The position numbers were made by a program, and so were the translations under genes. The notes beneath the pieces were generated by a model, which had not been told where the DNA came from, made no database searches, and saw only the letters and a program-made list of their open reading frames with translations. 64,000 bases of DNA. Origin: Oscillospiraceae bacterium. GTDB taxonomy: Bacteria; Bacillota; Clostridia; Oscillospirales; QAMX01. Shown here piece by piece: positions 17,346-28,937 of this stretch; position 1 is the stretch's first letter; each line of letters begins with the position of its first letter. Location of the stretch: the NCBI GenBank assembly GCA_015067715.1, contig SVLY01000002.1, positions 3,657 through 67,656 on the forward strand. Direction: 5' to 3'.

Positions 17346-17990
17346 ATGAAAAAAGGACTTACCGAGCTGGTATTCATACTTGACAAGAGCGGATCAATGG
17401 CAGGACTTGAGGCAGACACCGTCGGGGGCTTTAACGCCATGATAGACCGCCAGAAAAAAGAAGAGGGCGCGGCACTTGTGACCACCGTGCTCTTTGCAAA
17501 CTCTGCGGATACCGTCCACGACAGAGTACCCGTTGAAAAGGTTGAGCCCATGGACGGCAGGACGTATTCCGTTGGCGGCTGCACGGCTCTGCTGGACGCC
17601 GTGGGACAGACCGCAGAGCGCATTGCCCTTATCCACAAATACGCCCGGATCGAGGACGTGCCGGAAAAGACGGTCTTCGTTATCACCACCGACGGCATGG
17701 AAAACGCAAGCCGAAGCCACACCTATGAGACCGTTAAGCGCATTATCGAGGAGCGGAAGAAAAACGCCGGTTGGGAGTTTATTTTCCTTGGCGCCAATAT
17801 CGACGCGGCAAAGACAGCCGGAACAATGGGCATAGACAGCCCCAACGCCGTGAACTACGTCTGTGACAAACAGGGCACTGCGGTGAATTTCAGCGCCGTT
17901 GGAAAAGCCATAAGCTCTGTGCGGTCGAAGGGCAAGCTTGACAACAGCTGGCGCGAGGAGATCGACCGGGACTTTGCCAAAAGAAAATAA
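17346..17990 (+). CDS. vWA domain-containing protein
   Basis: GGGAGG then ATG at 17346. MIDAS motif LDKSGSM and later TTDGMEN. Confidence 0.8.
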   Translation: MKKGLTELVFILDKSGSMAGLEADTVGGFNAMIDRQKKEEGAALVTTVLFANSADTVHDRVPVEKVEPMDGRTYSVGGCTALLDAVGQTAERIALIHKYARIEDVPEKTVFVITTDGMENASRSHTYETVKRIIEERKKNAGWEFIFLGANIDAAKTAGTMGIDSPNAVNYVCDKQGTAVNFSAVGKAISSVRSKGKLDNSWREEIDRDFAKRK

Positions 17991-18021
17991 GCATTTTCCC
18001 CCTATGCGCCCCAGGTTTTTC

Positions 18022-18051
18022 TTGACTTGGGGCGCTTTTCTCGTTTATAAT
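18022..18051 (+). promoter_or_regulatory. sigma-A type promoter (TTGACT-18-TATAAT)
   Basis: TTGACT at 18022..18027 and TATAAT at 18046..18051, upstream of the 18094 gene. Confidence 0.5.
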
Positions 18052-18093
18052 GGTCCTGTCAGACCGAATGAGAAAAAACGGGGTGAGAATATC

Positions 18094-19980
18094 GTGTATA
18101 AAATAGCTGTTCCTCTTGTTCGCTATTACGAGCACAGGGAAGAAAATATCGCCCAGGCACGGCGCCTTGGGGCGGAGAGGGTGTTTTTGTGCCCCAGCCG
18201 GGGACTTGGCACGGAGGAGTTTTGCTCCGCCGAGCTTTTGCGGCTGGAGGAGAATATTAAGTTCTACGAAGACGCGGGCTTTGAGGTGGGCGTTTGGATA
18301 TCCACCATCGGCCACGGCGGTGACCTTGCCGGAGCTGTCAACGGCTATTACGGCGGCATGAGAAACCTTGTGGGCATAAGGGGAAGATCCGCAACGGATT
18401 CCTTCTGTCCCATGGACGAGGTCTTTTCGGGAAAGATATGCTCCTGGGTGGCGGGAATTGCCCGTGCCGGAGCAAAGATGATAATGCTGGACGACGATTA
18501 CCGTCTTTCCACCCGTGCGGGGGACAGCTGGTGTGCCTGTGAGGCTCACATGGCCGAATACCGCCGCCGTCTGGGAGAGGATATCTCCCGGGAAGAGGTG
18601 CTTGAAAAGGCCTTCACCGGCGGCCCCAACCGCTACCGCGACGTCTGGCTTGAGCTCATGGGGGACACTCTGCGTGACTTTGCAAAAAAGCTCCGCGCCG
18701 CGGCGGACAGCGTGAACCCGAATATCCGCATGGGCGCGTGCTCGTGCATTACCGTTTGGGACGGGGATGGCGCGGACTCCATTGAGATCGCAAAGATCCT
18801 CGCCGGAAAGAACCGCCCCTTTATGCGCTTTATCGGCGCGGCCTACTGGCCGTCAAGCTGGGGAGGCCCGTGTTCCAGCCTGCCCTACGTTATCGAGCTT
18901 GAAAGAATGCAGCGCTTCTGGTGCGAAAACGAGGATATCGAGATCTTTGCCGAGGGCGACGTTTATCCCCGACCCCGTCACTTTGTTCCGTCGGCCTATC
19001 TTGAACAGATGGACATGGCTCTCCGTGTGGACGGGGGAACGGACGGCATTTTGAAATACGGCATAGACTACGGCGCATCGCCAACCTACGAAACGGGCTA
19101 TGCCGACCGGGCAGAGCGCAACGCCCCACTGTACTGGGGTATTGCGGAGCTTTTTGCCGGAAAAAAGAACGTCGGCGTAAGCGTTGCCTGCGAAATGAAG
19201 CGCCTTGCAAACCGCTTTATTCCGGACTCCGGCATTATCGGCGGCAATGCGGACAACGGATTTTTCCAGCCGGAGCAGTATTTTCTCACGTCCAACTCCA
19301 TCCCGGTCACCTACGGGGACGGAATGGCCGTTAAGATCGCCTTCGGTGAAAACGCAAGATATCTCTCCATGGAGGAAAAGGGCTATATCCTCGACGTTCC
19401 CGGAGCAAAATATCTCGAGGAAAAGGGTGTTGACACCGGTCTTGCCCGGGCAACGGCCATAACCGACGCTCCCGAGGAAAAATATCCGGCGGAGGGTGAG
19501 CATATCTACCTTGGAAATGCAAGAGGGCTTTACGGCCTTGAACCAAAGGCCGGAGCTAAAGCGCACTCATTTATAGGTGAGAACATTTCCTCCTTCACCT
19601 ATGAAAATGCCCGGGGAAAACGGTTTTTGATCCTGGGCTGTGACGGGGAGAGGGCTGTGGACAATACACGGTTTTTCCGCAACTACTGCCGTCAGGCTCA
19701 GTTTATCAGAGAGATAGAATGGCTGGGTGACGAGCCCTTGCCCGCCGTCTGCCCCAAAAACCCGGAGCTTTACGTAATGTGCAAAAGGGGAGAGGGGTCA
19801 CTTTCCGTGGCGCTCATAAACTCTTTTTACGATTCCGTGCTTGACCCGGTGGTAAAGCTGGACAAAGCATATTCCTCCGTGCGCTTTTTGGGCTGTGAGG
19901 GTGAGCTGTGCGGAAACGAGGTTCGCCTTTCCGCGCCCATAGGCGCTTTCAGCCAGGCCTTTTTCGAGGTCACTCTGTAA
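18094..19980 (+). CDS. conserved hypothetical protein (possible TIM-barrel glycosidase-like)
   Basis: ORF 17938..19980 trimmed to the GTG at 18094, which lies downstream of the promoter and follows GGGGTGA. No family recognised. Function unknown. Confidence 0.55.
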   Translation: MYKIAVPLVRYYEHREENIAQARRLGAERVFLCPSRGLGTEEFCSAELLRLEENIKFYEDAGFEVGVWISTIGHGGDLAGAVNGYYGGMRNLVGIRGRSATDSFCPMDEVFSGKICSWVAGIARAGAKMIMLDDDYRLSTRAGDSWCACEAHMAEYRRRLGEDISREEVLEKAFTGGPNRYRDVWLELMGDTLRDFAKKLRAAADSVNPNIRMGACSCITVWDGDGADSIEIAKILAGKNRPFMRFIGAAYWPSSWGGPCSSLPYVIELERMQRFWCENEDIEIFAEGDVYPRPRHFVPSAYLEQMDMALRVDGGTDGILKYGIDYGASPTYETGYADRAERNAPLYWGIAELFAGKKNVGVSVACEMKRLANRFIPDSGIIGGNADNGFFQPEQYFLTSNSIPVTYGDGMAVKIAFGENARYLSMEEKGYILDVPGAKYLEEKGVDTGLARATAITDAPEEKYPAEGEHIYLGNARGLYGLEPKAGAKAHSFIGENISSFTYENARGKRFLILGCDGERAVDNTRFFRNYCRQAQFIREIEWLGDEPLPAVCPKNPELYVMCKRGEGSLSVALINSFYDSVLDPVVKLDKAYSSVRFLGCEGELCGNEVRLSAPIGAFSQAFFEVTL

Positions 19981-19993
19981 ACTCTGTAGAAAA

Positions 19994-20026
19994 GCGAGAC
20001 TTCCCCAAAGGGAAGTCTCGCTTTTC
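19994..20026 (+). terminator. rho-independent terminator
   Basis: GCGAGACTTCCC pairs with GGGAAGTCTCGC, followed by TTTT. Confidence 0.75.
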
Positions 20027-20045
20027 TGCGGTCTTTTTGGTCTAA

Positions 20046-20159
20046 GTAGGGGCGAACTGCGTTCGCCCGTTTGGCGTATCATCCCTGCTACCTTTCCCGG
20101 CGACATTGTGCTGAGGGAGACCTTTTCCGGACGCCCCGGGAGGGGCGTCCCTACATTTC
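20046..20159. repeat. 114-bp interspersed repeat unit, copy 1 (TIR-bounded, two GC hairpins)
   Basis: Differs from 20327..20440 at a single position (T/C in GTGCTGAGGG vs GTGCCGAGGG). Termini GTAGGGGCG / CGTCCCTAC are inverted repeats. Internal hairpins are GGGCGAACtgcGTTCGCCC and GGACGCCCCgggaGGGGCGTCC. Confidence 0.9.
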
Positions 20160-20326
20160 AAATATTCTTTTTGTCTGATAAGTGATATTCTATTCGCCCA
20201 TAAACTTGCGAAGCAAATATCACTGCGTAGCAATATAACTCGCCGAAGGCGAATATAACTGCGAAGCAATATAACTGTGCCGAAGGCACAATACAACTCG
20301 CCGTCAGGCGAATAGAGCCGTACACC
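20160..20326. repeat. array of ~6 mini-hairpins separated by ATATAAC-type spacers, closed by CTATTCGCC/GGCGAATAG
   Basis: The hairpins TTGCgaaGCAA, TGCgtaGCA, TCGCCgaaGGCGA, TGCgaaGCA, TGTGCCgaaGGCACA and TCGCCgtcaGGCGA each precede ATATCAC/ATATAAC/ATACAAC. A long-range complement links 20190..20198 with 20307..20315. Confidence 0.85.
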
Positions 20327-20440
20327 GTAGGGGCGAACTGCGTTCGCCCGTTTGGCGTATCATCCCTGCTACCTTTCCCGGCGACATTGTGCCGAGGGAG
20401 ACCTTTTCCGGACGCCCCGGGAGGGGCGTCCCTACATTTC
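20327..20440. repeat. 114-bp interspersed repeat unit, copy 2
   Basis: See copy 1. It abuts the stop codon of the 20441 gene. Confidence 0.9.
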
Positions 20441-21667
20441 TTATTCTCCGAATTCGGCGCTGTTAATATAGAGCACCTGGCTGAAATTGTAGAGCAGGAT
20501 ATCGTCCAGCTCTTCTCCGGCATCGTACATCTCAAGGCACTTTGTGTACATGTCGATATAAGCCTGGGTCCTTGCGTAGTCTGCCGTTCCGGGAGTCTGA
20601 CCCTTTATGGTCCACTGGGCGCCCTCGAGGTTGGCTTTCGTCTGGGTCAGGAAATAGACCTCGGGGTCGTACATGTCGGGCTGGTTCAGAATATTTCCGG
20701 AGTTCAGGTAGATGGTGTCAAGTCTTTCGTTGATGGCGGCAAGCTCGTCACTCTCTGCCTTTGAGAGCTTTGAAGCGTCCCCCTCTGCGGAGAGCAAAAG
20801 CGCGTCCTTACGGGCGGTGAGCTCTTCGACCTCTTTGACAAGCTCCACCCGGTCTGCCTCGAATTTGGCAAGATCGGCTTTGTAGTCCGAAAGCATGCTT
20901 TCGGGGGTGAGCTCATACCTTCCCTGCATTTTGTTGAGCTGTTCGAAATTGTAAAGGTAAATATCGTCCATGCTCTCGCCGTTCTCGTACATTCGGAGCA
21001 TTTCGGTATACATTTCAATGTATGCCTGTTCCTCCTGCCACTCCTTGGAGCCTTCCTTCATGCCTTTCTGGTTTTTGATGCATCTTTCAAGGCTTGAGGG
21101 GATATTGTTGAGGAAAACGTTTTCCAGGTTGTAAAAATCCGGATCTTCAAGGAATATATCCTGGTTGAACTCCAGATTTTTTATTCTTGACTCAATAAGA
21201 GCCAGCTCTTCTGCTGCATTTTTGGAGAGCTTATCTCTTTCTCCGCCGGCGGTGGCAAGAAGCTTGTCTCTTCTGTTCAAAAGGCTTTCGTAATAGTTAT
21301 TTGTGTTGTCTATGACAGATTGCCTTTTGGCAAGGTCAGCCTTGTATCGCTCAAGCTGAGCCTCGGGAGACATATCCGGAACGATCTTTTCGGGATCAAG
21401 AGTTGTTCCGTTTTCGACAACGACCGGTGCCGTGGTTTGTTCGGGGGAGGCGTTTGGGGTTGGCGCTTCGGTTTGTAAATCCTCAGATCCCTCTGATGTG
21501 GGGGACTCGGTCGTTGTAGCGGTAGTAGGTGCGGTTGTTATTTCCGTTGTATGAGGAGAGACAGCAATGATGCCGTCATTTTCGGGCACAACAGAGCATC
21601 CTGTAAGCAATGCAGCTGTTGCGAGAATAAAGACAACGGAAACGAAGAAAGTAATTCTCTTTTTCAT
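20441..21667 (-). CDS. lipoprotein with an internal ~150-aa tandem duplication, function unknown
   Basis: AGGAGG plus 8 nt then ATG at 21667. Signal/lipobox ATAALLTGCS. Two repeats share YKADLAK...KLSK...QAYI(E/D)MYT...DDI(Y/L)LYNF. Confidence 0.75.
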   Translation of the reverse strand: MKKRITFFVSVVFILATAALLTGCSVVPENDGIIAVSPHTTEITTAPTTATTTESPTSEGSEDLQTEAPTPNASPEQTTAPVVVENGTTLDPEKIVPDMSPEAQLERYKADLAKRQSVIDNTNNYYESLLNRRDKLLATAGGERDKLSKNAAEELALIESRIKNLEFNQDIFLEDPDFYNLENVFLNNIPSSLERCIKNQKGMKEGSKEWQEEQAYIEMYTEMLRMYENGESMDDIYLYNFEQLNKMQGRYELTPESMLSDYKADLAKFEADRVELVKEVEELTARKDALLLSAEGDASKLSKAESDELAAINERLDTIYLNSGNILNQPDMYDPEVYFLTQTKANLEGAQWTIKGQTPGTADYARTQAYIDMYTKCLEMYDAGEELDDILLYNFSQVLYINSAEFGE

Positions 21668-21838
21668 TGACAATTCCTCCTTGTATTTATTGATGGGGAT
21701 TTCTACGTCCCGTTTTTAATACGTATGATAACTGTTATCTGTGTTAAGTTTTGCTTAGTGTATGCCTGGCTGTTTTGGCCGGGGATTCGACTGTTAACCT
21801 CCTTTACGCGGCCCCTGCGGTGTATCTGTTACATTTTA

Positions 21839-28573: not shown

Positions 28574-28628
28574 GCAAAAAACGAGCCGCAGATTTAGCGT
28601 GATACTCTTTTCGGAGTATCACGCAACT

Positions 28629-28779
28629 CTATTCGCCTGACGGCGAGTTATATTGTGCCTTCGGCACAGTTATATTATGCTACGCATAGTGATATTGTCC
28701 TGCGGACAGTTTATGGCGAATAGAATATCACTATTCACGCTGACGCGTACGAGCATATCACTTAACAGACAAAAAGAAA
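28629..28779. repeat. second copy of the mini-hairpin array, opposite orientation to 20160..20326
   Basis: CTATTCGCCtgacGGCGAG TTATATT GTGCCttcGGCAC AG TTATATT ATGCtacGCAT AG TGATATT GTCCtgcGGAC ... GGCGAATAGAATATCACT ... ACAGACAAAAAGAA. The same ends and spacers appear in the reverse complement of the 20.2-kb array, with different hairpin stems. Confidence 0.85.
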
Positions 28780-28817
28780 GAGAAGACTCGTTATGATACG
28801 AATCTTCTCTTTCTGTC
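28766..28817 (-). terminator. rho-independent terminator for the 29435..28938 gene
   Basis: AGAAAGAGAAGACT (28775..28788) pairs with AATCTTCTCTTTCT (28801..28814). In the minus sense the stem is followed by UUUUGUCUGUU. Confidence 0.6.
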
Positions 28818-28937
28818 GTTATAAGGGTTTGGGCAACTGCCCATATTTGCGTTTGACTGGTCAAATGCGATGCTTGCACTTTGCTCAAAGCATAAATTCT
28901 CCGATAAGGACATCACCCATTACTCTGCGGCGTTTTT

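Follow-up and report, generated by a model that had tools for sequence, protein, structure and literature searches.

A probable BIME-like mosaic of REP doublets and a truncated Gut-1-type mini-hairpin array between convergent genes of an uncultured Clostridia genome

The closest known system for the repeat units described here is formed by the repetitive extragenic palindromes (REPs) and bacterial interspersed mosaic elements (BIMEs) of Escherichia coli with the protein TnpA-REP (RayT/YafM; structure 4ER8), together with the GTAG-REPs of TnpA-Y1 subclass 2.4 (Quentin et al. 2018, PMC6006769; Di Nocera et al. 2013, PMC3733652). A described counterpart of the mini-hairpins lying between these units is Gut-1 (RF01706), which was found in human-gut metagenomes with no function given in the original paper (Weinberg et al. 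2010, PMC2864571). Both kinds of repeat meet in a 395-bp intergenic block at positions 20046–20440 of a 64-kb window (the whole stretch of DNA that was analysed) on contig C60 of a metagenome-assembled genome (MAG; 2.69 Mb, 103 contigs, 54.6% GC, 92% complete) from an uncultured gut or rumen member of the Clostridia. With good but not full confidence, the block is read as a BIME-like mosaic of two unrelated hairpin-repeat families, namely REP doublets and a truncated, gene-less Gut-1-type array, placed between convergent genes and having the origin and function proposed below.

Two units of 114 nt on the plus strand, at 20046..20159 and 20327..20440, had been predicted as direct repeats, and this was confirmed at 99% identity with one mismatch; the element from hairpin to hairpin measures 109 nt, since the repeat extends 5 nt (ATTTC) beyond the sequence CTAC. 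Both units start with GTAGGGGCGAACtgcGTTCGCCC (20046–20068 and 20327–20349) and carry GGACGCCCCgggaGGGGCGTCC-CTAC (20129–20154 and 20410–20435), followed by ATTTC. REPs are defined by a conserved 5' GT[AG]G directly at the foot of an imperfect palindrome of 20–40 nt, and two different ones were recognised in each unit: REP-A, which is GTAG followed by GGGCGAACtgcGTTCGCCC, and REP-B, which is GTAG followed by GGACGCCCCtcccGGGGCGTCC. They stand tail to tail with their heads outward around a 60-nt core, with REP-A at 20046–20068 (+) and REP-B at 20154–20129 (−) in the first copy, and REP-A at 20327–20349 (+) and REP-B at 20435–20410 (−) in the second.

The original prediction had described the unit ends as terminal inverted repeats and offered a miniature inverted-repeat transposable element as one possible nature; such an element would be moved by a DDE transposase. 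Eight of nine terminal bases are indeed complementary and the unit is multi-copy, but what had been taken for inverted repeats is made up of the GTAG heads and GC stems of REPs from two different families, and either REP is also found singly or in other combinations. The flanks (TCTAA and ATTTC..) show no target-site duplication, and partial mosaics with unit positions 28–109 on other 5' modules are commoner than full units, which leaves a transposon of this type as a very improbable explanation. The REP/BIME-like nature that had been suggested as well was borne out by GTAG-headed hairpins in high copy number, an extragenic location, alternating orientation with fixed linkers, and RAYT-like genes (for REP-associated tyrosine transposase) in the same genome.

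A scan of the genome for GTAG followed by a perfect hairpin returned 313 sites in few discrete families with high copy numbers and perfect stems of 7–9 bp, and 449 near-perfect GTAGG hairpins were counted. Exact copies in the perfect-hairpin scan numbered 84 for REP-B (GTAGGGACGCCCCTCCCGGGGCGTCC) and 41 for REP-A (GTAGGGGCGAACTGCGTTCGCCC), or 56 for the latter with a one-base-shorter call of the same hairpin. When one stem mismatch was allowed, 369 GTAG-REPs in 16 families and 102 clusters were obtained, including 59 copies of REP-A and 90 of REP-B. Genes were called by a crude codon-usage caller made for this analysis; only two of the 369 REPs lie within called genes, both of them RAYT genes, and 48% of the REPs with both flanks known are located between convergent genes, compared with 14% of all intergenic regions. 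Different REPs are clustered in alternating orientation with conserved linkers, as is characteristic of BIMEs: head-to-head pairs spaced exactly 24 nt occur about 88 times in the genome, and the tail-to-tail pair of REP-A and REP-B with its core occurs in 16 full copies that are 95–100% identical to the unit at 20046–20159. More than 40 further partial mosaics share only unit positions 28–109, that is, the core and REP-B, attached to other 5' modules.

The units thus share with the REPs of E. coli and subclass 2.4 the 5' GTAG at the base of a GC-rich hairpin, extragenic copies that number in the hundreds and are biased to gene 3' ends, alternating types with fixed linkers in a mosaic, and RAYT-like HUH/Y1 genes, some with in-frame REPs. 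The REP side is therefore a BIME-like REP system of an already known kind. It differs from the E. coli REP/BIME system in its host, which is known as an uncultured Clostridia MAG, in RAYT scores under the NCBIfam cut-off, in a species-specific doublet with a 60-nt core, and in a mosaic that includes a second repeat family which is not a REP. Like the REPINs (REP doublets forming hairpins) of Pseudomonas fluorescens, an inverted REP pair is the replicating unit and its expansion is recent and lineage-specific; unlike in these REPINs, REP-A differs in sequence from REP-B, so that no single long hairpin results and the minimum-energy fold gives separate hairpins.

The 114-nt unit is species-specific, and neither of the other two species in the genus carries it. 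The head of REP-A (23–27 nt) is the only part of the unit found in other organisms, with the exact 23-mer present in more than 120 contigs of Oscillospiraceae, Acutalibacteraceae, Ruminococcus and 'Clostridia' MAGs from animal guts; when the unit and the array were compared by blast with 80 loci carrying this 23-mer, the REP head alone was matched. The same 23-mer was also observed in Microcystis (L079, L101, L105, L106) and in MAGs of Helicobacteraceae (L044/L046/L094), Zoogloeaceae (L045) and Kangiella (L092). Its occurrence in cyanobacteria and proteobacteria fits either a transfer of RAYT/REP pairs between phyla or a strong constraint by the enzyme.

A search of the genome for a cognate TnpA(REP) gene, as had been advised, yielded three to four RAYT-like genes. 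Y1_Tnp (Pfam) or REP_Tyr_transpos (NCBIfam) were the best matches at four places, on contigs C102, C101, C45 and C53, the last interrupted by TGA, with top scores of 57–67 bits. The closest solved structure is that of E. coli TnpA-REP (4ER8), and the HUH motif and the tyrosine of EYIxNNP are invariant in three of the proteins. A tandem array of REP-B begins 29 nt downstream of the C45 gene. Within the RAYT-like genes of C101 (11554–11738) and C102 (17407–17430), GTAG-REPs are located in frame, a described peculiarity of TnpA-REP subclass 2.4 (PMC6006769). By analogy to E. coli TnpA-REP, the REPs would be nicked and would spread as single-stranded DNA by means of these HUH/Y1 enzymes. Some further observations concern the same genes. 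At C45:2016–3465 (L032), the array behind the RAYT-like gene comprises seven REP-B and three variant-REP copies in tandem with periods of 129 and 152 nt. The in-frame REPs are positioned after the first strand of the protein and between the HUH and tyrosine motifs. About 230 nt separate a Gut-1-type array from the fourth frame (C53:12666–12983), the one with the in-frame TGA. A string 'MCIRDR' in the C45 frame was considered as a Nextera adapter chimera, and this was rejected, as the DNA is genuine coding sequence.

The second component of the block is a mini-hairpin array at 20189..20316, which in the orientation of the Rfam model lies on the minus strand and is a family separate from the REPs. 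Six hairpins with stems of 3–6 bp had been predicted and were all found, at 20206–16 (loop GAA), 20224–32 (GTA), 20240–52 (GAA), 20260–68 (GAA), 20276–90 (GAA) and 20298–311, the last having a GTCA loop in place of the GAA or GTA claimed for all of them. The complementary segments enclosing the array exist as described but form a closing stem of 10 and not 9 nt, with TCTATTCGCC at 20189–98 and GGCGAATAGA at 20307–16. The plus-strand linkers read ATATCAC, ATATAAC (three times) and ATACAAC, which corresponds to GTTATAT/GTGATAT on the minus strand. A cmscan search assigned 20228–20299 (−) to Gut-1 (RF01706) with 46.8 bits and an E value of 6.5e-8, and sister copies with this type of linker exceed the gathering score of 50 bits, at 28624–28700 (+) of the window with 54.9 bits and on contigs C34 and C73 with 59.1 and 56.8 bits. 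The array is thus a diverged member of Gut-1; a match to an already catalogued family had been named beforehand as something that would refute its novelty. Short hairpins, constant heptamer joints and an occurrence in gut-type Clostridia are shared with Gut-1, whereas the linker differs from the GUGAAAU of the model, and six hairpins plus a closing stem are present and not three hairpins.

In this genome Gut-1 is a dispersed repeat, with 75 matches of which 37 exceed the cut-off. Four subfamilies can be distinguished by the linker: GTGAAAT/ATGAAAT (canonical), GTTATAT/GTGATAT (that of 20189–20316, with about 28 copies), GTGATGT and GTGAAGT. Across the genome, 81 of 112 segments between linkers are perfect hairpins from end to end, compared with 1.1 expected from shuffles, and 14 stem types occur; because of this excess, and because both unit and array are multi-copy, the hairpins are not a product of chance. 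In the Rfam orientation, the copies of the subfamily follow a common order. A strong 5' hairpin, often GCGTGATACTC-N4-5-GAGTATCACGC, is followed by three to six units of linker and mini-hairpin and by GTTTAT-GGCGAATAGA, whose partner in the closing stem is CTCTATTCGCC at the start; contig C63 has a compensated variant of this stem (TTTTATTCGCC/GGCGAATAAAA). One or two linkers in the opposite orientation (ATATCAC) and then TTAWCAGACAAAAAGAA come next, and the copies end either in a terminator-like hairpin and a tail (11 places) or in REP-B of the 114-nt unit (10 places). A fuller gene-less array of the same subfamily is present in the window at 28574..28880 (+; 54.9 bits) and contains the 5' hairpin GCGTGATACTC..GAGTATCACGC, four mini-hairpins and the closing stem, as well as two ATATCAC linkers and a terminator-like hairpin; its tail is homologous to DNA beyond the gene discussed next.

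This gene encodes a protein of family PF05635 ('23S rRNA IVS protein'; structures 2RLD, 2GSC, 4DWL), here abbreviated IVP for intervening-sequence protein, a four-helix bundle like Avd of diversity-generating retroelements (DGRs); the family is homologous to Avd (PMC10053308). The genome carries six IVP genes. Upstream of the one at C63:22695–22967, a mirrored array was found with linkers and closing stem of the 20189–20316 type, and upstream of C25:48088 a mirrored GTGATGT/ACATCAC array; three others are located at contig ends. As a side observation, the IVP gene at C24:12880–13290 (L035) is bracketed by inverted heptad runs (ATGCAGA/GTGCAGA) with no hairpins between them, which may be a collapsed linker array. 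Gut-1 was put forward as an RNA, and a structured non-coding RNA had also been among the natures suggested for the block; here, the family is encountered as a dispersed, mirrored repeat linked to IVP genes and not as a single small RNA gene.

Among 60 other genomes of the order, Gut-1 co-occurs with PF05635 IVP genes and not with RAYT. IVP and Gut-1 were both found in 21 genomes, IVP only in 8, Gut-1 only in 3 (with one match each) and neither in 28; for RAYT the corresponding numbers were 8 with both, 9 with RAYT only, 16 with Gut-1 only and 27 with neither, and no RAYT match was obtained in the seven genomes richest in Gut-1. By a strict, linker-agnostic detector, 10 of 29 IVP genes have an array within 450 nt on their upstream side and 2 of 29 have one on their downstream side, against a background of 16 in 2036 genes of this genome, and repeated mirrored heptamers are visible at about 18 of the 29. 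On the IVP tree, the five linker classes require four changes, which is the minimum, compared with a mean of 10.5 in shuffles, none of 200 shuffles being as low, and every linker class spans several bacterial families.

A complete Gut-1-type element measures about 700 bp and comprises, in this order, a 5' hairpin, a distal half-array, the closing stem, a mirrored proximal half-array, a promoter-like site, the gene for a 115-amino-acid Avd-like IVP and a short hairpin tail. The element at C63:22380–23045 (L038 1186–1851) shows about 85–90% DNA identity with elements from two further families of the order, and this similarity extends from the 5' hairpin to about 55 nt beyond the stop codon. Such a near-identical element of array and IVP gene in three families points to horizontal transfer, as judged from the sequences. 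In a comparison with its relatives (L038, L176, L178), distal hairpins are swapped as whole units and proximal ones are conserved. A site TTGAAA-17-TATAAT (or TATACT) separates the array from the ribosome-binding site of the IVP gene, which puts the array upstream of the likely IVP promoter. Apart from this, a second conserved promoter-like site, TTGAAA-17-TATTTT preceded by TG, was noted at L038 1351–1323 (−) and L176 1923–1951 (+), facing the distal half-array and thus directed away from the IVP gene; a transcript started there would be antisense to the Rfam orientation. In gene-less copies, the left end is preserved together with parts of the tail (AAGGGTTTGGG.. and TATTTGTGCATACAAATGC), with four of six tail matches lying beside arrays. 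The 20189–20316 copy has no IVP gene and only one proximal linker; it retains of the complete element only the distal half, the closing stem and this linker, and looks like a truncated gene-less derivative of the IVP-linked element.

Whether the arrays act as DNA or as RNA is addressed by their loops. When the strand that Rfam does not model is read, 72 of 81 loops are GNA or GNNA closed by C:G, and the plus strand of 20189–20316 holds GCGAAGC (three times, once within TTGCGAAGCAA), GCGTAGC, CCGAAGG (twice) and CCGTCAGG. These motifs are those of the exceptionally stable DNA mini-hairpins d(GCGNAGC)/d(GCGNNAGC) studied by the Hirao group and known from the ssi origins of phage G4 and RSF1010; the d(GCGNAGC) hairpin melts at 70–76 degrees C and is formed only by GNA triloops (PMC13037366). 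In contrast to the single sites at these priming origins, arrays with a constant linker are found here, and these may fold as DNA in vivo. The commonest unit, TGC-TTC-GCA (36 of 81), has a 3-bp stem and no predicted RNA fold (0 kcal/mol). Together with the loop signature, this speaks for a role as folded DNA, short of proof.

Alternatively, the array could work as RNA, either as a stand-alone Gut-1 small RNA or as a module in 3' untranslated regions (UTRs) that blocks 3' exonucleases or titrates an RNA-binding protein, and its spread would then reflect selection for this role. In agreement with this, the RNA modelled by Rfam has the same sense as the upstream gene, as the 20189–20316 array has with respect to the minus-strand gene 20441–21673, and simple copies of the subfamily begin 34–83 nt past the stop codon of a co-directional gene. 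In non-convergent contexts, 9 of 10 copies are co-directional with the upstream gene. A count of 29 of 30 co-directional upstream genes is true by construction where regions are convergent, and orientation was scored only from the non-convergent contexts and from the distance to the stop codon; in convergent regions, arrays are nearer to the co-directional gene in 21 cases versus 5. Variation among the stems is fully compensated over the 14 types and 81 perfect hairpins mentioned above, and fold z-scores are −4.2. Nearest-neighbour folding, which lacks a GNA bonus, does not separate DNA from RNA or one strand from the other. On the other side, the commonest unit does not fold as RNA, and the loops on the Rfam strand are UNC or UNNC, which belong to no known class of stable RNA loops, whereas the other strand has the GNA and GNNA loops. 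In complete elements, the promoter-like site of the IVP gene comes only after the array, a terminator-like hairpin precedes some copies, and the mirrored build of the arrays makes orientation in convergent regions uninformative. High copy number, gain and loss of whole units and a patchy distribution suit selfish DNA. A function of the array as RNA is thus regarded as unlikely.

A further proposal is that Gut-1-type arrays represent the cis-acting, folded single-stranded DNA part of a small mobile element, with GNA mini-hairpins as its structural feature. The autonomous form would encode the Avd-like IVP, this protein or a recruited partner would recognise its own linker word, and gene-less arrays would be non-autonomous and spread in trans. 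The co-occurrence of IVP and Gut-1, the position of arrays upstream of IVP genes, the match between IVP clade and linker, the near-identity across families and the retained ends in gene-less copies fit such an element, which is put forward tentatively, with the odds rather against it. Unlike DGRs, neither a reverse transcriptase nor a template or variable repeat was found in this genome; mobility by means of a DGR-type reverse transcriptase was considered separately and is unlikely, with no RVT_1 match in the 92%-complete genome.

Returning to the block as a mosaic of REP doublets and a Gut-1-type array, its present arrangement can be traced by the junctions. The segment 20160..20188 (−), ATATCAC-TTATCAGACAAAAAGAA-TATTT, is a remnant of the proximal side of an array, and CCGTACACC at 20318..20326 (+) corresponds to the final 9 nt of the 24-nt linker between head-to-head REPs, which precedes REP-A at 12 places. 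The junction from array to REP-B is an identical 27-mer at 10 genomic places, whereas the fusion of the array 5' end to the last 9 nt of the REP linker is unique in the genome. From this unique junction, a local deletion of about 100 nt was deduced, which would have taken away REP-Gg, REP-H and the 5' hairpin of the array when compared with the modules on C26, C36, C61 and C62. Array and unit form a repeated module, with up to 3.5 tandem modules on C26 (unit-array-unit-array-unit-array-unit). Since this module is itself repeated, the unit-array-unit arrangement most probably goes back to unequal recombination between units, or to slippage between them, and, as we infer from the junctions, to the subsequent local deletion of about 100 nt. 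An artefact in the assembly of a repeat-rich MAG could be suspected as well, as such repeats are found no more than 300 nt from 45 of the 206 contig ends. The two units differ by one base, though, the junction from array to second unit is unique, and the same module order is present on seven other contigs, so that an artefact is hardly conceivable as the source of the duplicated arrangement.

Several points weigh against the explanation given here. Repeats at so many contig ends mean that copy numbers and tandem counts may be wrong. The Gut-1 match at 20228–20299 itself falls short of the gathering score. RAYT-like scores of 55–67 bits stay under the NCBIfam cut-off of 80, the C45 gene has no normal start codon (its 5' end is truncated or a rare start is used, the frame being open back to a TAG), and no RAYT is tied specifically to REP-A, with REP-B only adjoining the C45 gene. 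The homology of the tails is based on short exact matches of 13–23 nt. Compared with the intact orthologues in genomes G086 and G053, the C63 IVP gene shows a deletion of 1 nt in a T run, so that it is either frameshifted in the assembly or affected by a homopolymer error. The link of IVP and array consists of adjacency, co-occurrence and shared descent; the match of clade and linker is explained by physical linkage alone, and an activity of IVP in a mobile element is purely proposed. A 115-amino-acid helical bundle is, to our knowledge, not a known recombinase.

The block is located between convergent open reading frames at 17938–19980 (+) and 20441–21673 (−), and the second unit is contiguous with the TAA stop codon of the latter (gap 0), both as predicted. 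The minus-strand gene encodes a lipoprotein-like protein of 408–410 amino acids, has no Pfam or NCBIfam family, and has no relatives in 34 genomes of the family except for one weak match; the protein has an internal duplication and one paralogue on C73 with 32% identity. The gene 17938–19980 (680 amino acids) is likewise devoid of a Pfam or NCBIfam family, and for both flanking genes the collections searched contain no close relatives. An orthologous empty site was looked for and not found, the flanking genes having no usable relatives in genome contigs, metagenome contigs, an exact-protein index and the 34 genomes of the family, and the two congeners are too distant for a comparison of the locus, with the histidine kinase beside the second array being only 33–37% identical. 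Open reading frames across the structure had been thought to resemble proteins that are frequently mis-annotated in Clostridia; for this unit, the view did not hold, as the 84-amino-acid frame over the first unit matches only one protein among 5.8 billion.

Probably, the block has no dedicated function at this locus. E. coli REPs stabilise upstream mRNA, and those near stop codons can lower translation. Here, the REP-B hairpin begins 11 nt after the stop codon of the 20441–21673 gene, a position at which effects on mRNA decay or on translation termination are possible. An inverted repeat (I1) at 19984..20031, a long GC hairpin between an A-rich and a T-rich run, is a terminator-like site (plus-strand call) for the gene 17938–19980. 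By eye, it reads on the minus strand as a hairpin and then TTTTCT and is the first plausible stop for a minus-strand transcript crossing the repeats. If such a transcript reads on, the block would become a structured 3' UTR of about 450 nt of the lipoprotein gene, reaching up to the hairpin at 20031–19984.

REP/BIME systems are textbook knowledge in Proteobacteria and barely described in gut Clostridia; such repeats shape intergenic DNA, break MAG assemblies and create spurious open reading frames. Gut-1 has been in Rfam since 2010 without function or host and is found here as a high-copy repeat that bears the loop signature of hyperstable DNA mini-hairpins and travels with a small Avd-like gene, independent of the REP enzyme. 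If the link between IVP and Gut-1 is functional, a new repeat-plus-protein system would be at hand. If Gut-1-type arrays are indeed the DNA part of a mobile element, the pair of IVP and Gut-1 would parallel that of RAYT and REP and would explain two orphans, the Rfam family Gut-1 and the PF05635 proteins outside DGRs.

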